From Sedimentisphaerales bacterium (GTDB lineage Bacteria; Planctomycetota; Phycisphaerae; Sedimentisphaerales; SM23-30), in the NCBI GenBank assembly GCA_963666285.1, contig OY762712.1: a stretch of DNA of 64,000 nucleotides. The stretch is one strand, 5' to 3'. The notes beneath the pieces were generated by a model. That model was given only the letters and a program-made list of their open reading frames with translations. It was not told the DNA's origin and made no database searches. The translations under genes were made by a program, and so were the position numbers. Numbering within the stretch: position 1 is the stretch's first letter; the number at the start of each line of letters is the position of its first letter. This document shows, piece after piece, positions 21,181-54,799 of the stretch.

Positions 21181-21183
21181 TGA

Positions 21184-21663
21184 TTATTCTCCTGAAGATA
21201 GTTGTACCTTTGCCAGAGACGCCAGAGCCGTTCCACTCATCGCTTCACGCTGGTAAGGCTGCCCTTCTGTCCCTTCAACGATCATCTGCCAGACCTCAAG
21301 ACATGCAGCTCCTATTTTGAACAGTTCCAGGGCATCAACAGCGTTTACTTTCTTGCGAAGATCGATTCTAATATCCGGCCCTATCAACTCACCCTGCTCA
21401 TCTGCAATTACTTCCAGAACCTCAATAGCATTCAATAATGCCTTCATATTCGGGTCTGTCTCAGAATCTCCCGCCGTTGGCGTATAACCACTTTCTGCTG
21501 CCAGACGCAACAGCATAGCCACAACCTCAGCCTGCCGGTCTTTAACCGCTGTCATTATCCGCTTTATACTGGTCATAAAATCAGCGATATTACGGCTATG
21601 GGCCGTTAGTTTCTGCTGTTCGATCTTTTCCAGGGTAATTGTATTACTTGTTTCTGCTGCCAT
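21184..21663 (-). CDS. hypothetical phage protein
   Basis: 159-aa ORF in the operon. Overlaps its upstream neighbour by 20 nt. Confidence 0.55.
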   Translation of the reverse strand: MAAETSNTITLEKIEQQKLTAHSRNIADFMTSIKRIMTAVKDRQAEVVAMLLRLAAESGYTPTAGDSETDPNMKALLNAIEVLEVIADEQGELIGPDIRIDLRKKVNAVDALELFKIGAACLEVWQMIVEGTEGQPYQREAMSGTALASLAKVQLSSGE

Positions 21664-21889
21664 GCTTTATTCCTCTTTTCCTAAACTCATCCAGCAAAAT
21701 AACCGGATATGTACGTGGTTCATATTTCAGTAATTTCATAACATCCTGCTTATTTCGATACCCTTCAGAAAATATCAGGATATTGCCGTTAGCGGCAACT
21801 TTACGCATGCGCCACTGACCACGGCCATCACGATATATCTCGATTTTGGCCTTGGGATATCGAAACCGGTCAATTAACTTCTTTATCAT
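21644..21889 (-). CDS. DUF1508 / YegP-like domain protein
   Basis: KIEIYRDGRGQWRMRKVAANGNILIFSEGYRNKQD matches the YegP repeat pattern (F/IE-x-Y-x-x-x-x-G-x-W/F-R-x-x-x-x-A-x-NG-x-I-x-x-S-E-x-Y). Confidence 0.6.
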   Translation of the reverse strand: MIKKLIDRFRYPKAKIEIYRDGRGQWRMRKVAANGNILIFSEGYRNKQDVMKLLKYEPRTYPVILLDEFRKRGIKHGSRNK

Positions 21890-21961
21890 TGAAAAACCCT
21901 TTTATAGTAAAGCCTGCCCTGCCGATTTACGGCAGGACAGACGACAATCCACCAAATTAAA

Positions 21962-22693
21962 CTATAGCTGTGCCTTGATCTCTGCAATCTTAGCCGGGGT
22001 AGTTGGCGACTTCTGTTTCTCACGAAGAGAATCTTTAAGTACCTGCAATGCCCCGGTATCGCTATTGATACTGTCTTTGGCCTTCTGGACACCCTGAATA
22101 GTCTCTTTTAAGGCTGTCCTGGTCTCATGCAGTTCAGCTTCTGCCTCACTTAGCATTTGTTCAGACTCATCCAGATCATCTTTGATAAGCCACTTATCAA
22201 ACTCGACCTGCTCTTTTTCCTTAGTAACAGCCTTAACCTGCTTACCTTTCTTACGGGCAATTACAGATGCGATACCGGTTATTGCCAGTAGAATAGCATC
22301 TATAGTGCCGGAAAACGGATTGAATGCAGAAGTCCATCGATTGATCGTTCGGGCGGTATCAATCATCCCAACAGTACCATCTTCATACTGATAATCTGCC
22401 ATCTGGTCAGTTACAGTCTTGATATTGCCCTGGACGACATCTATCTCACCGGATACTTTCGAGACCTGCTGAACTACCTTATCATCTACAACACCCTGTT
22501 CATTTAGATTTTGAACAAGCGGCACCACAGCTTCCTGTAGAGATTCGACAGTTTCGTTAAGCATTTCGGTATAACTGACAATATCCTGACCGGTCTGGGC
22601 TTTATAGCTACTGCAACCGGTGGTAAAAAAGCACAAGGCCAGCATAGCCGCCAGAGTGCAAAGTAATATCCCACTAATCTGTTTATTAGACAT
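21962..22693 (-). CDS. lipoprotein with an internal TM helix and C-terminal coiled coil
   Basis: Signal peptide with lipobox (LCFFTTGC-S), a hydrophobic helix (GTIDAILLAITGIASVIA) mid-protein, and a charged helical tail. Confidence 0.6.
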   Translation of the reverse strand: MSNKQISGILLCTLAAMLALCFFTTGCSSYKAQTGQDIVSYTEMLNETVESLQEAVVPLVQNLNEQGVVDDKVVQQVSKVSGEIDVVQGNIKTVTDQMADYQYEDGTVGMIDTARTINRWTSAFNPFSGTIDAILLAITGIASVIARKKGKQVKAVTKEKEQVEFDKWLIKDDLDESEQMLSEAEAELHETRTALKETIQGVQKAKDSINSDTGALQVLKDSLREKQKSPTTPAKIAEIKAQL

Positions 22694-22731
22694 TTTTATT
22701 TTCTTTCTTCCTTTTGGATTATTTGAGTGTG

Positions 22732-22929
22732 TTATTGAGTGTTATTAGATTTATGTGTCGTTTCACAGTGCATCTGAAACTGGGCCGCGATAACCGCAAT
22801 TGCCTTCTGATTCTCAGATATCGATTTCTGATTCTCGGTTGTGACTTTGAAAAACCAACCTAAAACCACAATCAAAACTGTAAGAAGCGGCACACTTATC
22901 ATTGTATTTTTATTTACGGGTTCTGGCAT
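22732..22929 (-). CDS. small single-TM protein (holin-like or exclusion candidate)
   Basis: 65 aa with one TM helix (ISVPLLTVLIVVLGWFF) and a polar C-terminus. Lies directly upstream of the lipoprotein gene. Confidence 0.45.
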   Translation of the reverse strand: MPEPVNKNTMISVPLLTVLIVVLGWFFKVTTENQKSISENQKAIAVIAAQFQMHCETTHKSNNTQ

Positions 22930-23040
22930 TACAGTCCCCTTTCCAATATTTACTATCTAATTTGCACGCCAGAGCGTGAAACATAATTAACCATCCCCTA
23001 TCATGTCTCCCTGCGATCAAAGTTAAACACACAAGGTGTG

Positions 23041-23697
23041 CTATAAGAAACTAAGTTCAACATCATATTCATCCTGCTGAGATGCAATTTCAGCGGCAAG
23101 GGCCATACCCTGACTGATATATAACTCACTTACCCCGGATAATTGTGGTTTCTCATTAACTTCAAGGCGCAAGGCATAACCGGCTGTAATCTGGGTTAAT
23201 GCCTGATAGAAGTCCTGTAAGATAAGATTATCACCAGATACAGGGTCAGCCGGTGATATGCTGTACCAGAGATGAAGCGGTATATCGCTATACTGCGGTT
23301 GCGGGAACAGGATGATAGTTTTGTCACGTCGGGCATAAAATTCAGGTATGCTGCTACCATAATCTGCAATATCAGGGACATGGTTATCCAACAATACCGC
23401 ACCACCGGGAAACGGAGATAATGTCCTGGGCGAATAAGAATCCATGTATTTAAGGGTAATGATTTTACCCAGACCGCCCTCAACCGATGAGAAATCATAC
23501 TCATTCTGATCGGCGACAGTTGTAAATGAACTCTTATCAACCTTTGAACAGCCGTCGAGAGTAGGGTTAGCGGCAATAATCGCACGCTGGGCCGCACCGA
23601 CAAACCGCAGTAGTCTCGCTTCAGTTACCACGGCAGTATCATATTTTCTGCCAAGCTCAACCTGGACATCCTGAACAATATCACCAGCGGTCAACAT
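23041..23697 (-). CDS. virion structural protein (possible head-tail adaptor)
   Basis: 218 aa, coupled (1-nt overlap) to the upstream gene. Assignment rests on position downstream of the capsid genes only. Confidence 0.45.
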   Translation of the reverse strand: MLTAGDIVQDVQVELGRKYDTAVVTEARLLRFVGAAQRAIIAANPTLDGCSKVDKSSFTTVADQNEYDFSSVEGGLGKIITLKYMDSYSPRTLSPFPGGAVLLDNHVPDIADYGSSIPEFYARRDKTIILFPQPQYSDIPLHLWYSISPADPVSGDNLILQDFYQALTQITAGYALRLEVNEKPQLSGVSELYISQGMALAAEIASQQDEYDVELSFL

Positions 23698-24371
23698 TAA
23701 ACTGCCCCAAACGCAACATACTGAACCTGCTGATCGGGTACTTCAGGGATAAGTTCAACTTCAACCTTCAACTGGGAAGGACTGGAAGTGCCACCGGAAG
23801 AACCAAAGACCAGGTAATCACCGGCGGCAACCTGCGGACCGGCACCATCGGCATAGACCTTATCAGTTACCCCGTCAGCTGAAATACTAACAGCGTCAGC
23901 AGCGGCGATATAGGCATCTGCATCTGCTGTATTGCCAAGCAACGCAACAGGCGCACCGCCAGGTGCATTAGCCTGATATACCGTTACCCGTCCTATACGG
24001 GCATCTACCGGGCATATCCCAATCGGAACACCCGACCAGTTATTAGCCGAGACATGATCGCCATCATCAGCATCTGCAAACTTAAAGACAGGACGTGGCA
24101 CTCGTTTTGCCGAGACAATATGGTTACGGTCCCCGCTCCGGGAAATCTCGACATGTTCATTTACATATCTACCGCCCTGCTGCATGGCACCTGCAACTAT
24201 CGATACCTGCTCTAAAGCAAGCGGTGTATCAACCTGCATTTTATCTGTATGGTCTGGGTCTGTCGGGTTGCCATCTGAATCAGCAAACGGTATCTGACGT
24301 ATCACCAGAAACGGTCCACCCATCACACGGCCCCACAGCTCTTTACCGACCTGTAATATCTGTTTAATCAT
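23697..24371 (-). CDS. virion structural protein, function unknown
   Basis: 224 aa, GGAGG RBS 7 nt upstream, located in the capsid-proximal block. Confidence 0.55.
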   Translation of the reverse strand: MIKQILQVGKELWGRVMGGPFLVIRQIPFADSDGNPTDPDHTDKMQVDTPLALEQVSIVAGAMQQGGRYVNEHVEISRSGDRNHIVSAKRVPRPVFKFADADDGDHVSANNWSGVPIGICPVDARIGRVTVYQANAPGGAPVALLGNTADADAYIAAADAVSISADGVTDKVYADGAGPQVAAGDYLVFGSSGGTSSPSQLKVEVELIPEVPDQQVQYVAFGAV

Positions 24372-24427
24372 CGATTATCCTCCAAAATGATATGATTAAG
24401 GGCGGAGAACCCGCCCTGGAAATGAAA

Positions 24428-24967
24428 TTAGCTCGCTGCCTTGACATAGCCGACAACCGGCTTATCTGACATTGAAGCGTTACTAATGGCAATTTCACCG
24501 GATAAACCATGAAGCTGCATACTGTCACCTGCATCCAGTGAAAGAGTTACAGTAACACTTTTATCACTGAGACCGGGAACAAGCCCGATTGGACACTTAC
24601 CACCGGTCCAGAACCAGCCGAATTTGCCATCTTCCATTGCCGTAAGTGCAACTGCCGGTAACGCTCCTGTACTGATATTATCGCCATCCGGTGTAACTTC
24701 AGTATCCTTACCCTTGACAGTACCACACATCTGACCGGCAGCAGTTGCCGCAGCTCCACCTTTATTAAATTTAAGGTAGGTAAACTGGGTATAACCACCT
24801 GCTTCACGATCATAGATATTGACAGTAGTACCTAAATCTTCGGTAGGTTTTTCAACATTTGTCACATGACCGCTGGCGAAGGTATCGCCGTCACGGTCGA
24901 TTGAGATATCAGCCTGTTTGATAATACCGCAGATACGGCCCAAAAAGGTTATATTCACTAAATCCAT
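24428..24967 (-). CDS. capsid-associated protein (decoration/cement candidate)
   Basis: 179 aa immediately after the major capsid gene. Followed by a stem-loop at 24399-24417. Function is assigned by position only. Confidence 0.45.
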   Translation of the reverse strand: MDLVNITFLGRICGIIKQADISIDRDGDTFASGHVTNVEKPTEDLGTTVNIYDREAGGYTQFTYLKFNKGGAAATAAGQMCGTVKGKDTEVTPDGDNISTGALPAVALTAMEDGKFGWFWTGGKCPIGLVPGLSDKSVTVTLSLDAGDSMQLHGLSGEIAISNASMSDKPVVGYVKAAS

Positions 24968-25050
24968 CGTTATCCTCTTTTCGATGTTAGTTGTTTAAGT
25001 TAAATAATGGTGCCTGCCGGATGAACCGACAGACACACTAAATTTATGTG

Positions 25051-26244
25051 CTATGCACACAATACATTTGCACGCATCATGTTATTAACCGGGCTTTCAC
25101 AAGTGAAATTACCACGGAACTTAACATGTGCGAGATCCTCTTCCACACCACCTTTAACCTGGCTCTGGTCGAAGAAATCAGTAACCTCAAACGGCCCTTC
25201 ACTACTCTGTTGAGCGTCCGGGTCAGCCCAGTAACGAATACGCCAGGTCTTCAGATTCAAAATGAACAGGAAGTTATCACCGTTTGTTCCGTCAACTGTC
25301 AGCTCACCACAAAGGCCCTGCGCCCTGCCGTTGGAATCCTTAATGGAATTGTCATTGCGGTTTTTGCTGTCAAGTCCCCATTTAGTCATGTGAGACAGGT
25401 ATGGGTCTTTGATAATTTCCACATCGTTATAGATCATGCGGTCGAAACCTTGATTTATAACTTTTTCAGAACCGGTTACGGTCTGAATCTGTGACATCTC
25501 CAGGATACGTTTTAGCCCGTTAAACAGCTTATAACCGACGATAATGACTAGATCACCGTTAGATGTTTCGCTGTTTTCATTACAGGCATCTATCCATTCA
25601 TCCAGAATAGTCTTATTGAGAACAACCTCGCTAAAGATATTCTCATCATCAGCACTGAGCCACATTCTATTGCGGTCGATACCACGATCCAGCCCGCCGT
25701 AATAGTACAGATTATGTTCTGTATCACGACTGACAGCCGGGTTATCAGGATGTCTGGCAATTGCCCTCGGACTCAATAGAGCAGAACACAATCCCTGCAC
25801 ATTTGTATGGCCTTCATCCCACTCTCTATCACCGGCGCAAGAATATGTCCTTGCGATCAGTTTCTTTTTGAGTGCATCCAGAGCCATTCGGCTGTGCAAC
25901 CCTGCCAGATTGATAAGCTGATGGTCCCCCTTTGGCTTATTCTTGATCTTTTCATCGATCTTGGTTTCAATCGGCACCCTGATAAACGCAACATTCCAAC
26001 CTGCTTTAGCCAGGAAGTCCTTACGACCGCCGACAGTTGGGGTATTAGGCCCGTATTCCTGTGCCAGAGCATAGTAATCGTCCATCTGGTTTATCTGTTC
26101 GAATTTCAGACCGGCAGTAAACTGGGTCCGTTCCAGCAACCTGGTATATAATCCATTCTTCATTGCGAGTTGGGCTTTCCAACTCTTTTCCAATGCTTCG
26201 CGGGTTGCAATCGCGAGATTGGATTCTCCTTGTGTAACAGCCAT
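25051..26244 (-). CDS. major capsid protein (candidate)
   Basis: 397 aa, GGAGAGGA RBS, directly downstream of a coiled-coil scaffold-like gene. Size and synteny are typical. No motif-level proof. Confidence 0.6.
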   Translation of the reverse strand: MAVTQGESNLAIATREALEKSWKAQLAMKNGLYTRLLERTQFTAGLKFEQINQMDDYYALAQEYGPNTPTVGGRKDFLAKAGWNVAFIRVPIETKIDEKIKNKPKGDHQLINLAGLHSRMALDALKKKLIARTYSCAGDREWDEGHTNVQGLCSALLSPRAIARHPDNPAVSRDTEHNLYYYGGLDRGIDRNRMWLSADDENIFSEVVLNKTILDEWIDACNENSETSNGDLVIIVGYKLFNGLKRILEMSQIQTVTGSEKVINQGFDRMIYNDVEIIKDPYLSHMTKWGLDSKNRNDNSIKDSNGRAQGLCGELTVDGTNGDNFLFILNLKTWRIRYWADPDAQQSSEGPFEVTDFFDQSQVKGGVEEDLAHVKFRGNFTCESPVNNMMRANVLCA

Positions 26245-26312: not shown

Positions 26313-27185
26313 TTAGCCACTACCTCCGGCCCTCATTTGCTCTAACACCTCATCCAGCGTCCCTTCTTTGATCGCTGGTTGGCCATAATCGCCACTGGCT
26401 GAGTCAAGAATAGCGTTATTAGTAACCTGGCTGTTGTTCTGATTACCAGAACCATCGCCATTTTGTCGGTCAAGTGTCATATAACTAAGCCTGGCCTGCT
26501 TTTTCATAATGTCACGTCTGGTCTCAAGCGGCATCTTACCGAAGCCTTTTGTACCTGTTACCGTCTGCTCGATCTCTTGCAGTACCTTATTACGATAGCC
26601 CTTGCTAAAGCCTTCCTTTTCGAGTTCGGTACACATATCGTTCAGCCATTTCTCGCCGTTCTGGGCGGCCTGCTGACGATGTGTTGTATGCAGCATTTCC
26701 TGGAGCTTTTGAGTTTGACTCTTCAAACTGCTGTTCTCCTGCTCCATCCTTGTCATCTTCTCGTTTAGCTCTACAATGACCTCGGTAGCCTTGTTATAAT
26801 CTTCCAAATCTTCAGCGGATAACTTCGATTTATTACCACCTGACTGACTTTCCAATTCGGCTATACGCACCTGGGCCTGCTCATGCTGGCTTGCCAGATC
26901 ATCATAATCTGTCTGTAATTCCCAAACCTTCTTATTGAGCCCTTTAACCTCGTTTTTATGCTGACGGTCCATATCCCACTGTTTGGAATCGCTGCCGTCT
27001 TTATTTGCCGAATCGCTATTATCGCCGTTGTCAGTGTTATCTGACTGCTCGTTGTTATTACCTGAGCCGCCACCGCCGCCGTCTTGTTCAGCGAACCGAT
27101 GACATGAAACACCGCCAATACCACTTAAAATGCTATACCTGCCCCGCAGTTTTGATTTTGTCCAATAGCTTTCAAAATTAAACAT
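26313..27185 (-). CDS. capsid scaffolding protein (candidate)
   Basis: 290 aa with a low-complexity G/N/D/S-rich N-terminal region and a long helical, charged core. Lies between the portal-side genes and the capsid gene. Confidence 0.55.
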   Translation of the reverse strand: MFNFESYWTKSKLRGRYSILSGIGGVSCHRFAEQDGGGGGSGNNNEQSDNTDNGDNSDSANKDGSDSKQWDMDRQHKNEVKGLNKKVWELQTDYDDLASQHEQAQVRIAELESQSGGNKSKLSAEDLEDYNKATEVIVELNEKMTRMEQENSSLKSQTQKLQEMLHTTHRQQAAQNGEKWLNDMCTELEKEGFSKGYRNKVLQEIEQTVTGTKGFGKMPLETRRDIMKKQARLSYMTLDRQNGDGSGNQNNSQVTNNAILDSASGDYGQPAIKEGTLDEVLEQMRAGGSG

Positions 27186-27335
27186 ACTTTCTCCTTCCCC
27201 GGCTGGTAAGCACGTAGCCCGCCATCGGCGATTAAAAGAACATAATTACAACACACCTTCTGCTGGTCTCAGCTCCCATCGGAAAGCACATGGCCCGCCA
27301 TAGGGTTACTTCAACTGCTCTGGTGTAACAATAAA

Positions 27336-31899: not shown

Positions 31900-33228
31900 T
31901 TAACTCCCCTGCTCCTCCAGTTCGGCTAATTCTCTTTCCAGACGATTGACACTTGACTGCCATATACGACTCATCGGCCCGCCATCTTTCAGCTTGGCGC
32001 GATAGTCAATTATCAACTCTCGTTTGGTAGCGATCTGATCGACAATTGGAATTTCAGGTTCCGGTTGTTCAAGCCTTGTTTGATTTGGAATATCTGGTTT
32101 CTGGGAAAATCGTTTTTGTTTCATCCAGGCCAGAGATTCTATACACCCGTCAAGACGACTAATTGCAAAAAGTTCTTTATTATCAGCGCATGTCACCACA
32201 TGTTTAACAAGGCCATAACCATATTCTTTTACTCGTTCAGATAGCCACTGAATACCTGCTGCCGGTTTAAGTCCCATACGTTTTGGATTGGCATTGTAAA
32301 ATTGAGTCAACAAGTCTTCTATTTTTTCCTTATCAATATTACGCTCACCGTCAGAAGAACTGGTAGTATTAATACGGGAATTAATGTTAGTGTTAATTTT
32401 TCGGACATCTTGGGATGTCTGATTATTTAACTTCCGGATGTCCGATATATTACCTTCTGGATGTCCGGTTTTTTTACTCTTAGATGTCCGGTTTTTTAAC
32501 CCATCGCTGTAAGTTCTTGATGAAACAGGCCATATATAATAGCCATTAGCGATATTTCCTTTGGAAGTTCTGCGTTTAGCAACTTCAACTAAGCTTACAT
32601 TTTCTAGCAATTTTAATGATTTAATAATTGTCGGCTTGGATATCATGCAGTCTTTTTCAATAGTAGAGATTTGCGGAAACGCAAAGCCGTCTTCAAAGTC
32701 AGCTCTATATAGAAGACCACAATAAATTTTCCATGCTGCGTGGTTCCGACCAAGAGATTGGAAGAAACCACTATCAAATAATTCACGACTAAGTCTCACA
32801 TGACCAGGTGTAGATGTCTGGTCAGCAATTGTAATTTCGATAGGTTTATTTGAAAGAACCTGCCCAGCGTATATAGGATCTGTTTCTGGCGGGTTGGTTT
32901 CAGGAATACTCAGATGATATATACTTGGTTGTTTACCTGATCTTGTTATTTGTTTTTGGCATATCAACAGGCGGTTGAGTTCAAGCTCTCGTATCAGTTC
33001 AGGAATACCTTGTCTTCGGATTCCACAATCTTTTGAAAGTTCAGAATGACTAATTTTGCATCGAAAGGTTTGGAAGTCTGCTGCATATAATAATCGGCAA
33101 TATATCCGCCAAGCTGAAGGCCGAACAAGTGCAAAAAAACCTTCATGAAAATGGCTAAGCCATAGTTTAAGATACCCTGGATTGGCTGGTCCCTGCCCAC
33201 TAAAATTGTAAACGTGCTTTTCGGTCAT
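31900..33228 (-). CDS. replication-initiator-like protein with two HTH_36-type winged-helix domains
   Basis: Internal duplication: WRIYCRLLYAADFQTFRCKISHSELSKDCGIRRQGIPELIRELELNRLL and WKIYCGLLYRADFEDGFAFPQISTIEKDCMISKPTIIKSLKLLENVSLV. Overlaps the upstream gene by 4 nt. Confidence 0.6.
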   Translation of the reverse strand: MTEKHVYNFSGQGPANPGYLKLWLSHFHEGFFALVRPSAWRIYCRLLYAADFQTFRCKISHSELSKDCGIRRQGIPELIRELELNRLLICQKQITRSGKQPSIYHLSIPETNPPETDPIYAGQVLSNKPIEITIADQTSTPGHVRLSRELFDSGFFQSLGRNHAAWKIYCGLLYRADFEDGFAFPQISTIEKDCMISKPTIIKSLKLLENVSLVEVAKRRTSKGNIANGYYIWPVSSRTYSDGLKNRTSKSKKTGHPEGNISDIRKLNNQTSQDVRKINTNINSRINTTSSSDGERNIDKEKIEDLLTQFYNANPKRMGLKPAAGIQWLSERVKEYGYGLVKHVVTCADNKELFAISRLDGCIESLAWMKQKRFSQKPDIPNQTRLEQPEPEIPIVDQIATKRELIIDYRAKLKDGGPMSRIWQSSVNRLERELAELEEQGS

Positions 33229-34172
33229 TTTCCATCCATGTGACTGACATTCGGATCAGCTTCCTTGCTATCCGATTTATCTATTTTAACTTGATTTATT
33301 TCTTCATGCAAGAGAAGATTTTCAGCTTCCCTTGCATTAATTTGCTGCGTTAGGTCTTCAATCTTACTTTCAAGTTGTGATTTTTCTAAGTCAATTTTGG
33401 ATAACTCAGTTTGCAATTGCTTTTTCTCTGCCTCAGTTGCCCTTTCTAATAGTTTGATCTTTTCCTCTCCATTTTTTGCTATTTGTTCTTTTTCCAATTT
33501 GAGACGTGATATTTCTTCAATATTATCTGTAATTGATTTTTCTGCCTGGTTTGCTCTTAATTGTTCTGTATTTGCTCTACCTGTCTCTATAATTTTACTA
33601 CTGTAAAGAAACCAAGATATTCCTATAGATACCGATATGATAAATAAAATTGAAGCTATATAGTAGTAGTTAAGTTTGCGACATTGTTTTTCTAGCTCTT
33701 GACATTCTTGTTCATATTGCCTAATTTCTTTTGTTTTGCTAGTTGCTAAAGCAGTTGTTTTCGCTAATGTTTCATTATCTACTTTAATGCTGTTTATAGT
33801 TCTTTGCAGCAATTCATTAACATCTTTCATATTAAGTGCTGGTTCAGTATTAGATGGTGGCTTATGAGCGTCACCGCCCTGCCCTTTCTCATAAGTGTCT
33901 TCAATATCGGTGTTTATACTGTGAGCGTTATCTTGAGCGTTATAAGAAACTGGATTTGGATTAGGTAAATCATTATCTGCTGCCACTATTCTTTTTTCTA
34001 ATAAAAACTCTCTGAGTTGTTCAATATCAAAGTATGTTATTTTTCCAACCTTAAAGCTCTCTGGGTCTCCCATACGTCTCCAGCGTCTTAAAGTGGCTTC
34101 GCTCACACCTAATATTGCACACCCTTCTTTTATGGTCTTGAATCGCTCTCTATCGATACTCATGTCGCTCAT
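33225..34172 (-). CDS. membrane-tethered MerR/excisionase-type HTH protein with a C-terminal coiled coil
   Basis: N-terminal KEGCAILGVSEATLRRWRRMG HTH. TM helix YYYIASILFIISVSIGISWFLY. About 125 aa of heptad-like charged sequence after the TM. Confidence 0.65.
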   Translation of the reverse strand: MSDMSIDRERFKTIKEGCAILGVSEATLRRWRRMGDPESFKVGKITYFDIEQLREFLLEKRIVAADNDLPNPNPVSYNAQDNAHSINTDIEDTYEKGQGGDAHKPPSNTEPALNMKDVNELLQRTINSIKVDNETLAKTTALATSKTKEIRQYEQECQELEKQCRKLNYYYIASILFIISVSIGISWFLYSSKIIETGRANTEQLRANQAEKSITDNIEEISRLKLEKEQIAKNGEEKIKLLERATEAEKKQLQTELSKIDLEKSQLESKIEDLTQQINAREAENLLLHEEINQVKIDKSDSKEADPNVSHMDGK

Positions 34173-34217: not shown

Positions 34218-34400
34218 GTTACGCTTATTTTGATTATATATTACGCTTATTTTCGCTTATAATGCAATAAGAAATTTGAGCGATATTAAGCGTTATTGTC
34301 GCTCGTGTAAGCGTTATTAAGCGATATGATCGATTATAAGCGATACTTGAGCGAAATTGAGTGATTATGAGCGAAATTGATTAAAGATTATCGCTTATGA
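34218..34400. repeat. iteron/operator array with a TAAGCG (CGCTTA) core
   Basis: (G/A)TTACGCTTATTTT x2 (34218, 34240). TAAGCGTTATT x2 (34287, 34308). TAAGCGATA x2 (34318, 34337). TGAGCGAAATTGA x2 (34348, 34368). Further TGAGCGAT and CGCTTAT copies. Confidence 0.8.
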
Positions 34401-34529: not shown

Positions 34530-34655
34530 ATGAATACTTTGGTAACTATTATCGGTCACGGAGTAATAATAACTTTAGGAGTTCTGATAATTGGCGGTGT
34601 GATGTTTATGCCAATGTTGACCGAACATCCGGCGTGTCGGCCTGATGAGAAGTAG
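34530..34655 (+). CDS. 41-aa hydrophobic peptide (candidate)
   Basis: MNTLVTIIGHGVIITLGVLIIGGVMFMPMLTEHPACRPDEK. AAGG lies 8 nt upstream, and a strong terminator lies 30 nt downstream. Confidence 0.3.
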   Translation: MNTLVTIIGHGVIITLGVLIIGGVMFMPMLTEHPACRPDEK

Positions 34656-34683: not shown

Positions 34684-34711
34684 AGCAGCCACGGAAGGCT
34701 GCTTTTTTTTT
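34684..34711 (+). terminator. intrinsic terminator (plus strand)
   Basis: agcagcc-acggaa-ggctgct stem followed by nine T. Confidence 0.7.
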
Positions 34712-35216
34712 GAGTTTTTGGATTTTCAGGATAAATTATTATATAATTCTGAGTTATTATTTCCATATTGCTCAATTATTATTAACAAATAATTGGCAAT
34801 ATTTTGAATTTCTATTCTATATTTTGGTCTCTGTTTCATATTACTGATTTCCGCTAAAATATCTATTTTGCCAAATTTTAGGCAGGGCAGGGTCTTATAA
34901 TTATTCATTGATAATTGAGTTTGTATGTTAATTTTAAGTTTTTCGGTATGTAAAATTAATTTTGGTTTTTTGATTTTGGCTAGTTATAATTTACAACCTT
35001 TACACAGGATGAAGCAAATATTGAGGTTTAGCTGACAGAAAGGATTGGTTTAATGTCAGAAAATAAGAGTGAGGAGAAAAGCCAAAATCAACCACACCTT
35101 AACGACGATTATATCAAGGCAAAGGAATATTATACGGCATTAGGAGAATCGTTTTCACAAGAAGAAATGATAAATGTCGTGGCATTTATAAAAGCGATCC
35201 GGTTGAGAGATTCAGA

Positions 35217-36194
35217 TTAGAAAAGTTTTCCAGATAGGGCGAAAGCAAAAAGTTCGATCATTTCCTGCTCATCATCAGCTATGACTTCAAAGGTATAATT
35301 ATCTTTTGAGTATGTCTTTTTAATATATTTTGCTATTTCGTTATCTTTTGAGTCCATCAGCATGAGTAAAGCTGATGCTAAAAATGTACCTTTGCTGATG
35401 ACAATATTTTCATTTTTCAGCTTCTTGAAAGCTATTTTACCAGTCTCGCAAACCCATTTCAGGTTAATGTAGTTAGGGATTATGGCATGGATGTTTTTAG
35501 TTTCATCATCGTGATTTAATACTTTTTCAATATATTCCCAGATCAGTTTTTCTTTTGAATCCATGAATATGGATAGGGCGGTAGAAGCCAAAGTGCCTTT
35601 GGAGAGGTCAAAATGAACTATATTTACATTGCACCACTGGTCCCACCGGTCGGCAACTCTTTTTGGTATTCTGGCCGCAATTTCGCTGGTTTTAATTTTA
35701 TCACATAGAGTTTTTTCTATATACTTTGACACGATATCATCTTTGGTACTCATTAGCATGGCAAAAGCCGCCGCCATGAAATTCCCTTTATTGATGTCGT
35801 CGTTTTTATCGTACTGTTCACACCAGGCCAACCATTGGTCAGCTATTTTCTTTGGTATTTTGGTAGAAACCTGCTTAGATGTTCCATTTTTTACCGAAGT
35901 TTTTTTAAGGAAATGGTCAATATTTTTTTTGGCAGATTCCATAAAAAAAAGAAATGCTGCTGAAGCAAAATTACCCTTACTTAGACTTGTATCCAGAGCA
36001 AGTAAACTATGGTTTTTATACCAAATATTCCATTGTCCGGCTATTTCTGCCGGTATTCTGGCTGATATTTGTTCGGACTCAATAGCGGGCTGATGTAAGT
36101 TCTGCATGTGTGTTATTCTATCAGTGACATCAAAAAAAAACCAGATTTTTCTATTGAAATTAACAATAAAAGTTGTTATCTTTTCGCCATTCAT
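35217..36194 (-). CDS. single-chain protein with four tandem ribbon-helix-helix-like repeats (repressor candidate)
   Basis: Four ~65-aa repeats, each with a beta-strand (ISARIP / VSTKIP / IAARIP / IHAIIP), a helix (..QW..W..), an SKG(N/T)F turn and a second helix. Divergent from the plus-strand early genes. Confidence 0.65.
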   Translation of the reverse strand: MNGEKITTFIVNFNRKIWFFFDVTDRITHMQNLHQPAIESEQISARIPAEIAGQWNIWYKNHSLLALDTSLSKGNFASAAFLFFMESAKKNIDHFLKKTSVKNGTSKQVSTKIPKKIADQWLAWCEQYDKNDDINKGNFMAAAFAMLMSTKDDIVSKYIEKTLCDKIKTSEIAARIPKRVADRWDQWCNVNIVHFDLSKGTLASTALSIFMDSKEKLIWEYIEKVLNHDDETKNIHAIIPNYINLKWVCETGKIAFKKLKNENIVISKGTFLASALLMLMDSKDNEIAKYIKKTYSKDNYTFEVIADDEQEMIELFAFALSGKLF

Positions 36195-36271
36195 GTTACT
36201 CTTTTATGTAACATTTTATTTTGCATGATGATACAACAGCTTTGAAATTCCGACATTGCAGAGGATAAAAA

Positions 36272-36424
36272 ATGACTAAATTTTTTGAAGGTGGTGCATT
36301 TCTTTGGACCATCATAGTATTGTTTTTTCTTGGGGCAATAGCTTACTTACTCTCAGGTAAACCGTTAAAGGCATTGTATATGACCGGGGCTGGTCTTGTC
36401 AATATTGCTGTAGTTCTGCAATAG
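36272..36424 (+). CDS. 50-aa two-TM small membrane protein (candidate)
   Basis: MTKFFEGGAFLWTIIVLFFLGAIAYLLSGKPLKALYMTGAGLVNIAVVLQ. GAGGA lies 6 nt upstream. Below the track size cutoff. Confidence 0.35.
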   Translation: MTKFFEGGAFLWTIIVLFFLGAIAYLLSGKPLKALYMTGAGLVNIAVVLQ

Positions 36425-40959: not shown

Positions 40960-41238
40960 ATGGGGTGTAATCGTAACACTGCAATTGTTTTGACAGCGTT
41001 AGCTGAAAAAACATGTTCAATTCAAGAACTTACAAAGTTAGTCGGTAATGTTTCCAGTGTCCGTTCAGCTATACACAGGCTGAGAAGATGGGGCTGGCAT
41101 ATTGTTATGTGTCAGTATTCTGTTGGTGTATGTGCATATTATATTGTCGATACCGATCAGAGGATAGCTGCCGGCAAATTATCAAAAGGCGATCTTAACC
41201 GTAAGATGATCTTGCCTTCCAGGAAGGGGGGTAAATAA
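40960..41238 (+). CDS. small winged-helix protein (excisionase/regulator candidate)
   Basis: 92 aa. CSIQELTKLVGNVSSVRSAIHRLRRWGW is HTH-like. Coupled 1 nt (TAATG) to the integrase. Confidence 0.5.
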   Translation: MGCNRNTAIVLTALAEKTCSIQELTKLVGNVSSVRSAIHRLRRWGWHIVMCQYSVGVCAYYIVDTDQRIAAGKLSKGDLNRKMILPSRKGGK

Positions 41239-42272
41239 TGAGAAAGCCTCAACTTCATCATTACAAAAAAAGATTTACTTTTCGCTGGGAAGATAAGTTA
41301 ACGGGAACAAACAGAAGTCGTGTTTTACCCAAAGGGATAGATCGTGAAGAAGCTGAAAGGAGACGAAATGATTTTTGTATCGATCTTGATAATGTAACAT
41401 GGGATCGATGGTGTGAAATTGATATTCAGACACACAGTAGCAAGGTGCGGGAAAGCTCAATAGATAGTATTGACAGAACGTACAGGCATATCTCAAGGCT
41501 ATTAGGTCCAGACTATCTAAGAGATATTGACTCTAATATGGTCTTGGAATATCGCCGTATCCGGTACGAGGAGGGATGCAAGCCTGGTACAATAAATACA
41601 GAACTTGCGGTAATACAGGCCGCATTTAACCGCGCAATAAAACGAGATGTTGTAAATTACAATCCAGTTGATAGCTCGATGAGGTGTAATGTTGATGAAA
41701 AACCAATATCAATTGTGTCGGATTATTATTATCAAATTTTATTAGAAGCTGCACCTACTTTTGACTGGGAACTTATTATAGCTATTGGATATCATGTCGG
41801 ATTGAGGATAGGGGAGATATTAGCATTAAACACCTGGGATATTAATATTGACCATTATGAACTTTATATAACAAATACCAAGGTACATAAACTTAAAAGC
41901 GGCAGAAACAGGGTTGTACCTATACCGCTACCGTTATATGGTTATCTCGTTAAACGGCTTAAAGAAGGTCCAAGAGGTAGGGTTATAGGTTCGGTAAGTA
42001 TGAAGCCCAATAAACATTGCAGCTATAATGTTAATAATGCCAGTCGGAACTTTGCCAGGATATGTGAAAAAGCCGGACTGGTAAATGAATTAGATAAGAA
42101 CGTGTACACGACTCATTCATTACGTAGAACCTGTATAACTGACTGGATCAGGAAAGGTTGTAGCGTTGAAGAAGTAAAGGAGATGGCCGGACATAAGTCC
42201 ATTGTCACAACTCTGAAGTATTATTGCCAGACTGCTGAAATAGAATCTGCCAAAAAGAAACTTGTGCGATAG
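41238..42272 (+). CDS. int: tyrosine recombinase / phage integrase
   Basis: GLRIGEILAL (Arg), HSLRRT (H-x-x-R), GHKSIVTTLKYY (His ... catalytic Tyr). 344 aa. Confidence 0.9.
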   Translation: MRKPQLHHYKKRFTFRWEDKLTGTNRSRVLPKGIDREEAERRRNDFCIDLDNVTWDRWCEIDIQTHSSKVRESSIDSIDRTYRHISRLLGPDYLRDIDSNMVLEYRRIRYEEGCKPGTINTELAVIQAAFNRAIKRDVVNYNPVDSSMRCNVDEKPISIVSDYYYQILLEAAPTFDWELIIAIGYHVGLRIGEILALNTWDINIDHYELYITNTKVHKLKSGRNRVVPIPLPLYGYLVKRLKEGPRGRVIGSVSMKPNKHCSYNVNNASRNFARICEKAGLVNELDKNVYTTHSLRRTCITDWIRKGCSVEEVKEMAGHKSIVTTLKYYCQTAEIESAKKKLVR

Positions 42273-42798: not shown

Positions 42799-45700
42799 TT
42801 ATTTAGAAGACTCTAATAACTGAGTCTTCATATACATTATATACAAATCCTTCTTAGCTTCAAGGATTTCCTTGAGAAGTTTCTTGTATTCCTTCTCAGG
42901 TATCTGGTCTTTGATTTCTTCGATGAAATTCTCTAGCTGAGTTAGCTGTAAAGCCATGATCTCAATAGTTGGATTCTGGCTATCAACTTTCCGCTTAGTA
43001 TCAATAAGATTTGAACGTGATAGCTTTCTGGTCACGATCTCATCAGATACAACCGGATCATGTTCTGTTGATGTAAGATCAAATACACTCATACTAGCGA
43101 TTGAAACCTCTGTTGTAACAGGTTCGACGTATGATGTGCTTTCAAGGCTCATTGTCATCGGTGAAGCCATAGCCATTGCAGCAACCATATCACTCATGGA
43201 ACTATTAGTTATATAGCAAGGTCGCCATAGCCAGTTATCAGCCAGGATTGAGAAATCATCCATATCAATGATATTGGCACTTGAACCGGTATCAGCCCAG
43301 TTATAATCTGGATTCCAGTCAGTTGGTCCATTTAGTAACCAGGTTGCTGCCATACCTGCAAATTCATACATATTAATTCTGCTGTCCAGATTAATATCGT
43401 ATATCGAGAATGTATCCCAGCATGAAATCTCATCAGCACCCATATCAACATCATCATCTTCTAACCTGTACGAACCGTCAATATCAAGCTCGTTGACTAT
43501 ATCCACAGCAGAGGTCAAACCAAGTTCTTTACAAGGTGATTCGATTGACAAATGAAGATCATAGAAGTCTGAATAATTAGGGTCATACGGATAAGCAAAT
43601 AGCGGATCACACTTGATATTACTGTTCGGGTCAGCTTCACATTCAAAAAGATTATTAGGGTCTAAATTTTGAATACAGTTATATGTTATATCTAATGGTC
43701 CGCTAATCTGGTTGTCATTTTTCCAGATGATATTGTTTGTAACTTTTACTTCACCATCAGCAGAAATACCATATCTATCATTTAGTGCTATTGTATTTCC
43801 CCTGATTTCATCAGAAGAATCAGCACCACTAAGATAAACACCGCCGTCATTTTTATGTATAAAACTATTCAAAATGGTAATGTCACCGTTGTTATCTGTG
43901 TGGATAGCACGGGAATCATTATTATAGATATTGCAATTGGCAATAGTAGCTGAAGAATTAGCGATATCAATACCATAGGTTCCACTATCTGTAATAGCAC
44001 AGAATGAAATCTCAGGGGCATTGCCTGTTGTGCTGGTATTGTCAATCTTAATTCCAGCCTGGCCACTGCCTTTTATGACAAAACCATTCAAAACAGTATC
44101 GTTACCAGTAATTGTTATTACGTTTGACTTATCAGCAGCACCATCTTCATCAGGATCGCCAGTCAGTATGGTTTTGTTCAAAACGATATTTCGCTGGTCC
44201 AAAGATGATTCATTACCTGCAAACCCTCCGTACATAGATAGTCCTTCATAGATAACAAAAGAGTCATCAGTTAAATCACAATATGATATTGGTGCATACG
44301 CGCCTGTAGCTACCCATATAGAGTCGTAATCGTAGTAGCTATCCTCGATAAACATCATTGCTTGGTTAATATCGGTGAATGCATTGCGCCAGGAAGTTCC
44401 CGATGTATAGCCTGTGGCATTCTGGTCCACATATACTACGCCTTGAACAGCACCGGTAGAGGTCCAATATCCTACCTCAAGATGATAGTGCCTTAAAACT
44501 CTATTCTGGTCGCTCTCATATTTAACGTGAAAATTGATTGATGTCCCAGGCTTTGCCAGTTCGCTAATGGTAAGAGTGAGTGTTTGGTTAACTACCGCTG
44601 GCATATCTCCGAGAGAAAAAGTATAGGCATGTAGCTTATCATCATAATTACCACTCATTGCTGTAGCAAAATCAATATTCATCTCAGGTGCGAGATATAA
44701 TTTAACGGTCAGGTTGGTGTCTGTGCCGCCAAAAGTGTCATTAACATTTATGTCTATTTCATCTCCGGGTAGAATGTCATAGTGAAAATCAGTATCATTT
44801 GGGTCTGTACTAAATCCACCTTGTGATAAATCAATTAGATTGTCCTCATTGTCATATACGAATAGATTGTTAGGGTCAATATTAGTAGGTTTGATTATAT
44901 CGAATCCTAATGGCATAAACTCAGCATACCAATCTAACGTAAAACCATAATAAACTGTGACTAAATCATCAGAATCTACCTCCACATCATAGTCATAATC
45001 GTAGGTACATCCAATGTCAACTCCTCCATTTGTTAGTTCAACGCTTTCCTTTATATCGAGTAAAGCTGGAAAAATATCATCTGCGGTGCTTCCACTATCA
45101 GCAGATAAGCCATTGGCAGAATTGTATAAATTAACAGTTGTATTATTAGTGTGTGAAAGTATGTATAATTTATCATCACCATTAAGCATATTAAGTAGCA
45201 TGTAGTTATCCAAGCTACCAAAACCACTGCCATCTTCCCCAGGGGTATATACCAATCTGTTGTTAGTGTTATAAACAGATACGGAGATATTATTGCTTGA
45301 GGCAACTTCATAATAATGACCGAAGTCTTGACGAGTGTCTGAATATTCGTACATTTTATGTTCGTAAACTTGTCCTTTATCTAAGGTAAAATCTAAAAAA
45401 CTATTTCCTTCCTGGGTTACAGTCACTTGTGTGTTATCTGTGTATCCAACAAAAACAAAGTATTTTTCGCTGCCATGAGAGGGGAAGTAAGTATAAAATT
45501 CCTGCCCGCTGAATGTTCCATTGCTTGCGGGGACATAGTATCCAGAATCTGTCATACAAAGTGCAGAAACCCCTTTGTTGGCGGTAATGCGTAACTTCTT
45601 TTCCCAAATTGAGTAAAAATCATCGGTGGTATTCCATTCCAGGTGTTCTCCTTTATTAATATAATTAGGATCAGATGGTCGCATGATAGATGAAAACTCT

Positions 45701-46185
45701 GGGTATCCGGGATTATTAGGGTCATCCTGGCCTGTATATTGACTAACTTCTATGTACGTTTCATCTTCATGGGCAAATACTACAAATTTGCCGCCAGCTT
45801 TTGGAAATGAGGTGTATAATTCTGTGCTTACACCTTTGTCATAAGGGTCTAAGGCGTAATACCCACTTATAGTGTTTATGTCGCCACCATCACCATCATC
45901 ACCATTTAGTAGCGTAAATCTACCATTTCCTGTAACTGTATGTACTTTCTTTTTCTCGGTGGAATTTGTGATATAGCGACCAGATTCTCCTTTCATCAAG
46001 GTGTCTGACCAAAGCAAGGTATTAGCTCTGTTTCGTATTTCCAAGTAATTGTTGTCTTCATAACTGAAGACTTCAAGACTGCCAAAGTTAATTACACTTG
46101 CTTGATAATCAGCCAATGCTAAATTGACCGTAAATAAGGTAAAAATAAGCGCAAATAATCCCCGTAGATTTGAATCTTTCATCAT
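42799..46185 (-). CDS. large secreted beta-helix surface protein with a dockerin-like C-terminal module
   Basis: 1128 aa. Signal peptide (LFALIFTLFTVNLALA). VVYVDQNATGYTSGTSWRNAFTDINQA ... YGGFAG cap motif followed by beta-helix rungs. The C-terminal module is shared with 49681.. and 57830... AAGGAG RBS. Confidence 0.8.
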   Translation of the reverse strand: MMKDSNLRGLFALIFTLFTVNLALADYQASVINFGSLEVFSYEDNNYLEIRNRANTLLWSDTLMKGESGRYITNSTEKKKVHTVTGNGRFTLLNGDDGDGGDINTISGYYALDPYDKGVSTELYTSFPKAGGKFVVFAHEDETYIEVSQYTGQDDPNNPGYPEFSSIMRPSDPNYINKGEHLEWNTTDDFYSIWEKKLRITANKGVSALCMTDSGYYVPASNGTFSGQEFYTYFPSHGSEKYFVFVGYTDNTQVTVTQEGNSFLDFTLDKGQVYEHKMYEYSDTRQDFGHYYEVASSNNISVSVYNTNNRLVYTPGEDGSGFGSLDNYMLLNMLNGDDKLYILSHTNNTTVNLYNSANGLSADSGSTADDIFPALLDIKESVELTNGGVDIGCTYDYDYDVEVDSDDLVTVYYGFTLDWYAEFMPLGFDIIKPTNIDPNNLFVYDNEDNLIDLSQGGFSTDPNDTDFHYDILPGDEIDINVNDTFGGTDTNLTVKLYLAPEMNIDFATAMSGNYDDKLHAYTFSLGDMPAVVNQTLTLTISELAKPGTSINFHVKYESDQNRVLRHYHLEVGYWTSTGAVQGVVYVDQNATGYTSGTSWRNAFTDINQAMMFIEDSYYDYDSIWVATGAYAPISYCDLTDDSFVIYEGLSMYGGFAGNESSLDQRNIVLNKTILTGDPDEDGAADKSNVITITGNDTVLNGFVIKGSGQAGIKIDNTSTTGNAPEISFCAITDSGTYGIDIANSSATIANCNIYNNDSRAIHTDNNGDITILNSFIHKNDGGVYLSGADSSDEIRGNTIALNDRYGISADGEVKVTNNIIWKNDNQISGPLDITYNCIQNLDPNNLFECEADPNSNIKCDPLFAYPYDPNYSDFYDLHLSIESPCKELGLTSAVDIVNELDIDGSYRLEDDDVDMGADEISCWDTFSIYDINLDSRINMYEFAGMAATWLLNGPTDWNPDYNWADTGSSANIIDMDDFSILADNWLWRPCYITNSSMSDMVAAMAMASPMTMSLESTSYVEPVTTEVSIASMSVFDLTSTEHDPVVSDEIVTRKLSRSNLIDTKRKVDSQNPTIEIMALQLTQLENFIEEIKDQIPEKEYKKLLKEILEAKKDLYIMYMKTQLLESSK

Positions 46186-52647: not shown

Positions 52648-53754
52648 AGTATAGCATCCTTTCAGTTTTGCTACATCAACTTCTATCCTCAACTGTTCAC
52701 GTTGAACAGTTTTCTCATAAGGCTGAAAAAACTCACTCTATACAGTTCAACTAACTCAATCACACTCTTTGTTTGCTGGAAATGCCCATAAAAAAGGGGC
52801 ACCACCTACACATTTCACTGAGGTCCGGCAAAGAACCCTAGAAGATATGTAAAGCAGTACCCGTTCCGGGTACTGTCTCTTTTACACACTTCTATATAAA
52901 ATTTTGCCGATTTCAGTGAATGCGATAAAAGATCAGTGATCTTGTAATATTCAATTGTCACGAAGTCACAGCAGGGAATTAAAGAAGATAAATCCCTTGT
53001 ATGCCAGCTCCGCAGTATTTTAATCCTAAGCCATACGATTATGTATGTCAAAGAATAATAGGTTGGTTTCATTATTCTTTCCTTCTGACTCCATCATAAG
53101 TGTAATATATTTCCTACATTTACATTCCATTGATAATCATCAGGCCAACGCAATAGACAAACTCTAAATTACCATAAATGCCCTATCTAAATCAAGTAGA
53201 AAATCAGTATAAAAAAATACTAAAAATTCACTATCTATATAATTTCTAATAATTTATGAAAAGCCGACCAGCTTTCGCCTGCCATTTCCCAGATACACTC
53301 TGAAACACTCATTAAGTTTTCAGCATTGAATCATGTGCTACTTTATATAAATTATTTATTTCACGCAACTTATAGTGTTTTTAGCATGGCAGGCGGCGCA
53401 CAAAAAAACAGAAGCCATTAAGGGCGCTACACAGTCATGCTCACTAGAGGCCCGCTAAAGCCCTTGCAGAAACACAACATTTATAGCACCCTCAGCAACC
53501 TCTGTATGAAATCAGGGTTTCTGAGAGTGCCGTTGCTGACATTTCTGCAATAAAAATTTAGCGATTTCTAGTGAAACATCTAAACGGTACATCCAAATTG
53601 TCAAAATGTATTATGCCATCCTTTTGGGGCTATTTCAATATCTTTTTCCAGTAGGATGGTTTTTGTTTCATAATTCTTGATAAATTTCGTTAGAATATGT
53701 AATATAGGAAAATTGAATGATTTATGTTACTTATGATATATTTATGGAGTGTTT

Positions 53755-54514: not shown

Positions 54515-54799
54515 ATGAAACCAATGGTAATTTCATTAACAAAGCATTACGAGAAAAACGATGAGAACTTGAAACTTGAATTGGAATTACTGAGAAATGG
54601 CATATTCAAAAAATGCTCAGATGGCGCATGGAAGCTATATTGCCACCTTGCTAATGTTGCCGATAATGACGGTAATTGTTGGCGTGGGACATCAACAATA
54701 GCCAACGATCTTGATATGAGTCGCCATAAAGTTTTTAGTTCGATCAAAGAGCTGGAACAGCTTGGCATGATAATAATAACAAGAGATATGAAAGTTTGA
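54515..54799 (+). CDS. HTH_36-type winged-helix protein
   Basis: WKLYCHLANVADNDGNCWRGTSTIANDLDMSRHKVFSSIKELEQLGMII. Same pattern as the two domains of 31900..33228. Confidence 0.6.
   Translation: MKPMVISLTKHYEKNDENLKLELELLRNGIFKKCSDGAWKLYCHLANVADNDGNCWRGTSTIANDLDMSRHKVFSSIKELEQLGMIIITRDMKV

Follow-up and report, generated by a model that had tools for sequence, protein, structure and literature searches.

A predicted four-motif ribbon-helix-helix protein at the divergent early region of an uncultured temperate phage

Ribbon-helix-helix (RHH) repressors are the textbook case of assembly-dependent DNA recognition, in which monomers form dimers and dimers a tetramer on the operator. Several described proteins carry two RHH motifs in one polypeptide. 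In TraY and DndE the two motifs are followed by a C-terminal helix (PMC12117103, PMC10853773); AvtR (PMC5569661) and the N-terminal domain of the CRISPR accessory protein WYL1 (PMC6547453) also have two motifs in a single chain. TraY binds DNA as a monomer, with several copies on adjacent sites (PMC12117103, PMC10853773). AvtR likewise binds as a monomer; it regulates its own expression and extends along about 100 bp of DNA between divergent promoters (PMC5569661). The divergent strands of DndE permit asymmetric sites (PMC10853773). Here we describe a gene whose product is predicted to carry four such motifs in one chain. It lies in a 64,000-nucleotide stretch (the window) of contig OY762712.1 (GenBank assembly GCA_963666285.1, Sedimentisphaerales bacterium); the window is most of this 65.6-kb contig, which belongs to an uncultured temperate tailed phage. 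All coordinates are those of the window, and residue numbers those of the longest open reading frame (ORF) of the gene (35217..36194, minus strand), which was verified in the window and has 325 codons. The protein is probably a sequence-specific DNA-binding regulator acting at the early promoters of the phage, a reading to which we assign a probability of about 0.6; the regulator role as such is well supported.

Four tandem units and their predicted fold

A hidden Markov model built from the repeat places four tandem units of 63-69 amino acids at residues 41-106 (unit 1; 35877..36074, minus strand), 107-170 (unit 2; 35685..35876, minus strand), 171-233 (unit 3; 35496..35684, minus strand) and 234-302 (unit 4; 35289..35495, minus strand). 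All six unit pairs are alike: their local alignments score 64-121, where shuffled sequences average about 23 (z = 9.9-21), and the duplication can still be seen in the DNA as a 32-nt block recurring at a spacing of 189/198 nt. The units share the pattern [IV]-x-[small]-x-[IV]-P, followed by helix A (IAxxWxxWC), and by a S/N-K-G sequence that opens helix B, with an invariant Ala. Hydrophobic residues alternate with polar or basic ones along the strand. In unit 1 the predicted strand is QISARIP, helix A is AEIAGQWNIWYKN, helix B is SKGNFASAAFLFFMES and the linker helix is KKNIDHFLKK; unit 4 has a longer helix A or loop. The classical G-x-S/T/N is absent in literal form, and the conserved S/N-K-G is present before helix B. 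All homologues have Q/K-x-S/T-x-R-[IV] as the unit-1 strand, with Arg two residues before Pro in all five, a pattern that resembles the Q9-N11-R13 strand of Arc. The units are followed by an acidic C-terminal tail of 23 residues (303-325; 35220..35288, minus strand; net charge -5), whose amphipathic helix, DDEQEMIELFAFALSGK, is kept in all homologues, including one of only two units.

The family is tiny, with five relatives among approximately 15 billion proteins. In a word-indexed search of 5.8 billion clusters the sole relative was P0002 (327 residues, 40% identity). An exhaustive search of 1.84 billion representatives with the unit profile added four members: P0003, which has four units; P0006, the two-unit protein (171 residues) with the same tail; and P0004 and P0005, which together represent a single four-unit gene, broken by frameshifts, on contig L003. 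Three other matches of the profile search were to long repetitive proteins, over short stretches only, and were set aside; the one inspected (P0007) is unrelated. IMG/VR, JGI metagenomes, a GTDB set with one genome for each species, and the GenBank phages (DNA or protein) contained no relative, and a search for a further locus for P0003 gave nothing. Four loci could be compared, namely the window and contigs L001, L002 and L003, all metagenomic. Among the four-unit proteins, each unit is closest to the unit at the same position in the homologues (first to first, and so on); the four-unit layout is therefore older than the divergence of these proteins, and each unit has an identity of its own. 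The gene on L003 (1551-2464), an 8.4-kb contig, is split by two frameshifts into P0005, a shifted unit 2 and P0004; it is either a pseudogene or a product of poor assembly, and many other genes on this contig are likewise fragmented. These proteins define a new family without a Pfam or PHROG model.

The fold of the units was examined with AlphaFold2. A model of residues 171-325 (units 3 and 4 plus the tail) was made without templates from an alignment of 11 rows, composed of neighbouring unit pairs from the homologues. All five models had a predicted local distance difference test score (pLDDT) of 88-91, the best reaching 90.9 with a predicted template modelling (TM) score of 0.86. In model numbering, unit 3 (pLDDT about 89-97) consists of a strand at 2-7 and helices at 8-25, 29-42 and 45-56, and unit 4 of a strand at 62-67 and helices at 71-92, 98-110 and 114-124; the tail forms a helix at 139-151 (pLDDT 75-86). 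Each modelled unit is thus a strand-helix-helix element plus a third, linker helix. The model has only two strands, one at the N-terminus of each unit. These must be each other's partners, since strands assigned by DSSP need one and no other is present, so that in the model an RHH ribbon, presumably antiparallel, would be formed within one chain by units 3 and 4. Units 1 and 2 are covered by their alignment to units 3 and 4. The preliminary description of the gene had proposed four fused RHH units amounting to a covalent dimer of dimers. Its quoted peptides are verbatim in the sequence, the repeats are as described and the model is RHH-like, in the face of sequence methods that detect no RHH motif (see below). 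The N-terminal strand pairing on which that description made its RHH reading depend is implied by the model; as to the dimer of dimers, one pair is seen in the model, and the arrangement of the whole chain is extrapolated from it.

A Foldseek comparison of the model with the PDB gave, as the sole geometrically sensible matches, three chains of the F-plasmid relaxosome (TraY) and two DndE entries, with TM scores on the target of 0.37-0.60 and root-mean-square deviations (rmsd) of 4.7-6.4 Å. The relaxosome entries, 9f0x-9f12, contain three TraY chains each, and the letters of the matched chains were inferred. Against the BFVD library of viral structures, the best matches had probabilities of 0.96-1.00 and included annotated RHH/CopG proteins of Sulfolobales viruses; proteins of about 105 residues aligned with TM scores of 0.63-0.67 on the target and rmsd of 3.1-3.8 Å.

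The nearest PDB neighbour, TraY of the F plasmid (PDB 9f0x-9f12; PF05509), is a two-RHH pseudo-dimer followed by a C-terminal helix, as are units 3-4 in the model. Unlike the phage protein, it has two motifs rather than four and no defined third helix as linker, it shows no detectable sequence similarity to the phage protein, and it acts as a relaxosome accessory at oriT beside a relaxase, whereas the phage locus lacks conjugation genes. The second neighbour, DndE (PDB 4lrv, 7x4e), also combines tandem RHH motifs with a C-terminal helical extension but is the obligate partner of the DndD/CxC ABC ATPase in DNA modification; no such gene lies beside the phage gene, and PADLOC gave no match to the four-RHH protein. 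Membership in either family was rejected, the defining partners being absent and the neighbours being an integrase, a replication initiator, a portal and genes without assignment. The protein is an architectural analogue of TraY and DndE, not a member of either family. AvtR, from Acidianus filamentous virus 6, belongs to the class of about 105 residues and is itself a viral two-RHH transcription regulator; it differs in coming from an archaeal virus and in having two motifs, and the BFVD matches are similar to it in size. Arc and Mnt of phage P22 act as a dimer of dimers on one operator, an arrangement of which the phage protein would be a natural covalent version. Their chains, however, have 53-82 residues and need to associate, they control the antirepressor (immI) and not the main switch, and no sequence similarity between them and the phage protein was found.

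Predicted back-to-back promoters and candidate operators

The gene was described at the outset as divergent from the plus-strand genes, and these do start at 36272. The position of its own start codon had to be revised. P0003 and P0005 begin at a Met equivalent to residue 30 (M30), and the real start is probably the ATG of this codon, at 36107-36105; the probable coding sequence (35217..36107, minus strand) thus specifies 296 amino acids, plus a stop codon. The 5' extension of the longest ORF (36108..36194, minus strand; residues 1-29) contains the two predicted back-to-back promoters, and its 29 codons are probably untranslated. Within it, the window and L001 have an identical block, AAAAATCTGGTTTTTTTTT, but in different frames (KIWFFF in the window, KNLVFF in L001), the change of frame resulting from a 1-nt difference in length between this block and the ATG; in L002 the block falls outside the called ORF. 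Because its frame differs between phages, the block is conserved as DNA and not as protein.

The gene's own putative promoter is marked by an extended -10-like element, TGATAGAAT (36115..36123, minus strand), located 7 nt before the ATG at 36107. The same spacing is found in the relatives (TGATAGAAT-7-ATG in L001, TGTTAAAAT-7-ATG in L003), and L002 is similar. A consensus promoter scan did not list the element, owing to the lack of a -35 match. No Shine-Dalgarno sequence precedes the ATG; neighbouring genes have GAGG-type sites. From a -10 element at the distance expected for transcription starting at the ATG, together with the missing Shine-Dalgarno sequence, we infer that the mRNA of the four-RHH gene is leaderless and begins at the M30 codon. 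A leaderless start is also typical of the lambda cI transcript from PRM. Farther upstream, a near-consensus minus-strand promoter (36373-36402; TTGACA-18-TACAAT, 11/12) faces the four-RHH gene from within a plus-strand ORF of 50 codons, and could provide a second, leadered transcript of the establishment type. This ORF is missing from L001, and the promoter is therefore not conserved in position.

The interval 36108-36271 holds two predicted promoters arranged back to back. The divergent one (36154..36182, plus strand) reads TTGAAA-17-(TGT)TATCTT, scoring 9/12 in the scan with the TG present; L001 and L003 share TTGAAA-17-TGnTATTTT. It is likely to drive the plus-strand operon from 36272 onward, which has at least nine genes, the last being the integrase gene (41238-42272). 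Between the two promoters lies a conserved block, A9-CCAGATTTTT (36131..36153), which is present in all four loci and may be an UP element or a factor-binding site. Another block, CCTCTGCAATGT, is common to the window (36235-36262), L001 and L003 (1410-1441). In L003 it encodes the N-terminus (..TTLQR) of a homologue of a 69-residue membrane protein, whereas in the window it is non-coding and supplies the ribosome-binding site of the 50-codon ORF; it looks like the relic of a gene insertion at the switch.

Superimposed on these promoters is a cluster of the pentamer TAACA, present five times in the 164 nt of 36108-36271 against 0.49 copies expected, an excess of about 10-fold (Poisson P = 1.6e-4 before correction; 114 pentamers). 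No other 164-nt stretch of the 64-kb window is as dense. Two copies form the inverted repeat TAACAA-N6-TTGTTA (36161..36178), a candidate operator located in the spacer and -10 of the divergent promoter. Two more belong to the inverted repeat ATGTTAC-N8-GTAACAT (36193..36214), a second candidate just downstream of the expected start of the divergent transcript. The fifth, between the gene's own -10 element and the ATG (36111..36115, minus strand), is a candidate autoregulatory site. The 7-bp repeat at 36193-36214 had been noticed before, and it is present as reported; it does not, however, overlap the probable start codon, only the ATG of the longest ORF, and lies at about -86 to -107 from the M30 start. 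Taken by itself, this repeat is no more than chance could produce: of 1000 dinucleotide shuffles of the intergenic region, 234 contained a perfect 7-bp inverted repeat with a loop of 3-12 nt, and the window shows no enrichment of its heptamer (13 copies against 10.4 expected). The TAACA cluster as a whole is plausible as the operator set.

The motif differs between phages. L002 has TAACA four times, including the corresponding promoter spacer (TGTTAG), whereas in L001 and L003 the equivalent spacer carries AATAGATGA instead. Where the window has ATGTTAC-N8-GTAACAT, L001 has another inverted repeat, ATCTAA-N9-TTAGAT. The unit-1 strand divides along the same line, Q-S/T-R being found with TAACA (window and L002) and K-T-R with TAGAT (L001 and L003), which is the pattern that a co-evolving repressor and operator would give.

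On the basis of these elements, a mechanism may be proposed. Adjacent motifs would pair their N-terminal strands into a two-stranded ribbon, and the chain would fold as two covalent pseudo-dimers, 1+2 and 3+4, each resembling one TraY or AvtR monomer. The short third helix of each unit would serve as linker, and the conserved acidic C-terminal helix would be left free for protein contacts. As the four strands differ, the monomer could read a long asymmetric operator and would not have to dimerise and tetramerise as Arc or Mnt do. Probably translated from a leaderless mRNA that begins at M30, the protein would bind TAACA-type sites in 36108-36271, shutting off the divergent promoter of the integrase-ended plus-strand operon and autoregulating its own promoter.

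Genetic context and alternative functions

The location of the gene is constant: L001, L002 and L003, like the window, have it at the divergent junction that separates the operon on the integrase side from the genes for replication and structure. Besides the integrase, the window encodes a DnaD/O-like replication initiator with an HTH_36 domain, an HTH_17 protein, beta-helix fibre proteins and a gene syntenic with the SU10-type portal genes of L001 and L002. The segment 33000-39000 has no DNA match among GenBank phages. No repressor of the CI type, with a helix-turn-helix and S24 peptidase, was found among the window ORFs scanned, and no RNA family or tRNA in the region. A convergent ORF for a small acidic protein of 55 residues (35053..35220, plus strand) abuts the stop codon of the four-RHH gene. 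Its homologues stand at the same place in L001, L002 and L003 and match no family; the product may be a partner or an antagonist of the regulator. A toxin-antitoxin reading of the pair was discarded, the small neighbour being convergent, not co-transcribed, and matching no toxin family. Beyond it, a terminator-like hairpin (34491-34469, minus strand) separates the four-RHH gene from the replication genes. This hairpin and another (34684-34703, plus strand) bracket a hydrophobic ORF of 41 codons (34530-34655, plus strand), which resembles an insulated cassette for a small membrane peptide, placed between the regulator gene and those for replication.

Next to the replication genes is an iteron-like array (34219-34396) with nine copies of AAGCG(A/T)TA, allowing up to one mismatch, in both orientations. 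It holds five of the eight exact matches to this sequence in the window and lies just upstream of the HTH_17 and initiator genes. Equivalent arrays made of other units are present in L001 (12640-12820, TCGGAA), L002 (11270-11395, TCGGTCA) and L003 (about 4130-4300, TCGGAA). The array is probably an origin or the operator sites of the initiator. It was considered as a target of the four-RHH protein and set aside, its unit being unrelated to TAACA and more simply a site of the initiator. The HTH_17 gene (33225-34172, minus strand) encodes an excisionase/MerR-like domain fused to a long coiled coil, with a single predicted membrane helix (YYYIASILFIISVSIGISWFLYS), a layout unusual for a position directly before the replication initiator.

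A number of results weigh against a four-RHH regulator. With E <= 10, Pfam, PHROGs and NCBIfam returned no RHH family for the whole protein or for single units (a DUF4286 match at 21 bits, below the cut-off, was discarded); neither phmmer nor an hmmsearch with the unit profile found an RHH chain in the PDB, and the search of 1.84 billion representatives produced the family itself without any link to RHH proteins. An hhalign comparison with validated RHH units of TraY and of the archaeal virus STSV1 (see below) was not significant (P = 0.13), its single alignment being in the expected register, strand to strand and helix B to helix B. The Foldseek matches have weak E-values (0.03-8), as the small size of the fold would lead one to expect. 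The alignment behind the model of units 3-4 has just 11 rows of paralogous unit pairs, and a full-length AlphaFold2 run on a two-sequence alignment had a pLDDT of 37, which leaves the pairing of units 1 and 2 and the arrangement of the whole chain as proposals. The net charge of the protein is weakly basic, at +2 to +3; the strands of units 2-4 are variable, several of those in the homologues having no basic residue. At the DNA level, the TAACA copies are spaced by 15, 20, 13 and 50 bp without regular phasing, the co-variation of strand and motif comes from four loci of which two are closely related, and the gene runs in the direction of the replication genes, which places it on the Cro-like side of a lambda-type map. 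The RHH assignment is thus well supported by structure prediction and unsupported by sequence statistics, although the residue pattern of the units agrees with it.

Within the proposed regulatory role, the more specific identification as the lysogeny-maintaining immunity repressor is tentative, and we hold it at somewhat less than even odds. It is based on the position in the switch region, on the scan of ORFs, in which no CI-type repressor could be recognised, and on the motif cluster; the apparently monocistronic gene, the probable leaderless start and the hairpin before the replication genes also fit. The preliminary description had favoured this function strongly. Position and motif cluster keep the claim plausible, but a Cro-like or other early regulator is a possible alternative. 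In that case the same fold and promoters would belong to a lytic-side or general early regulator and immunity would be conferred by another protein, a situation we consider unlikely. The gene has the orientation of the structural genes and of those for the HTH_17 protein and the replication initiator, pointing away from the operon of the integrase, and the window offers other DNA-binding candidates for the role of repressor, namely the HTH_17 protein, a small HTH_36 protein (54515-54799) and the product of an unassigned 92-codon ORF before the integrase gene. However, with a convergent ORF next to it and the hairpin beyond, the gene looks monocistronic, its probable leaderless start is of the kind typical for lambda cI from PRM, and a high-specificity protein of 296 residues is large for a Cro-type factor.

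A TraY-like role as an architectural or origin accessory, in which RHH pseudo-dimers would coat and bend origin DNA and aid the initiator with no part in transcription control, seems improbable. The nearest structures, TraY and DndE, are indeed DNA-handling accessory factors, TraY acting as a train of adjacent monomers (PMC12117103, PMC10853773), and every locus has an iteron-like array some 800 nt downstream of the gene, ahead of the replication genes. Yet AAGCGWTA, the unit of the array, bears no relation to the TAACA cluster, only one TAACA being found in the array, at its edge, and no relaxase, ABC ATPase or partition ATPase is encoded nearby. Moreover, the simplest view of iterons next to the gene of an initiator is that this protein itself binds them, as for lambda O and plasmid Rep proteins. 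It is very improbable that the RHH-like scaffold binds RNA or a protein partner rather than double-stranded DNA, for instance as an anti-defence or regulatory adaptor. The tandem RHH of WYL1 does bind single-stranded RNA (PMC6547453), and the near-neutral charge, the acidic tail and the conserved small acidic neighbour as a potential partner would suit such a role; against it stand the conserved Arg and polar residues on the unit-1 strand, the S/N-K-G opening helix B, and the location of the gene between two promoters carrying a clustered short motif. Finally, the chance that the RHH call is an artefact of a shallow paralogue alignment and the units are a new helical repeat of another kind is very small: sequence-level support is nil and the Foldseek E-values are weak, but all five models reach a pLDDT of 88-91, tandem-RHH proteins top two independent libraries although the model is template-free, and the lone hhalign alignment is in the expected register.

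Elsewhere in the window, two proteins (54882-55748, plus strand; 57123-57749, minus strand), one of them also with an FGE-sulfatase domain, end in PEP-CTERM signals (PF07589, above the cut-off), which suggests that the host has an exosortase system. Genes for three large beta-helix proteins lie nearby (42799-46185, 49681-52692 and 57830-60553).

Multi-RHH chains in viruses

No paper describing four RHH motifs in one chain was found in the literature. Several RHH motifs per chain are nevertheless present in proteins of the Sulfolobus virus STSV1 (L005; NC_006268), encoded by ORF21-24 (21128-25361) and ORF26 (26354-27334) and annotated as hypothetical. ORF21-23 and ORF26 (270-361 residues) have Pfam RHH_1 matches, and ORF24 (414 residues) is matched only by a profile built here. 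The RHH_1 matches fall at residues 148-185 and 315-347, with weaker RHH-type matches at 59-91 and 206-244. Visual inspection suggests four RHH motifs in ORF23 and up to six in ORF21 and ORF22. The BFVD entries Q684F1, Q684E8 and Q684A1, which from their lengths appear to be STSV1 ORF23, ORF26 and ORF1, are, together with K9MCS1 and K9ME33, which may come from STSV2, among the best matches over the full model. Like the phage protein, the STSV1 chains are viral proteins (270-414 residues) with several RHH motifs each; they differ in coming from an archaeal virus, in being built of canonical units of about 40 residues known to Pfam, and in having no sequence relation to the phage family. In the literature searched, these arrays are not described. 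More than two RHH motifs in a chain thus already occur in nature, unannotated, and the single-chain design that had been noted as unusual is unusual but not unique, the two-RHH chains being well known besides. The phage family is a new, sequence-orphan example of a multi-RHH protein from bacterial phages, with a longer unit that includes a third helix as linker and with a conserved tail, and the STSV1 chains suggest that multi-RHH arrays are an overlooked architectural class.

It is possible, if doubtful, that the protein is the CI-equivalent, monomeric master repressor of an undescribed lineage of temperate phages, its four non-identical RHH strands reading a long and fully asymmetric composite operator. 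If so, covalent linkage would replace the cooperative dimer-tetramer assembly typical of Arc, Mnt and CopG, and specificity would be re-tuned between phages by joint change of the strand residues and the pentamer sites. The four-RHH chain would then be the natural counterpart of the engineered single-chain Arc: by hard-wiring two pseudo-dimers, it would trade concentration-dependent cooperativity for a fixed, asymmetric reader of high information content. The back-to-back promoters, the probable leaderless mRNA and the phage-specific pentamer sites offer a first handle on the switch of this uncultured phage lineage.

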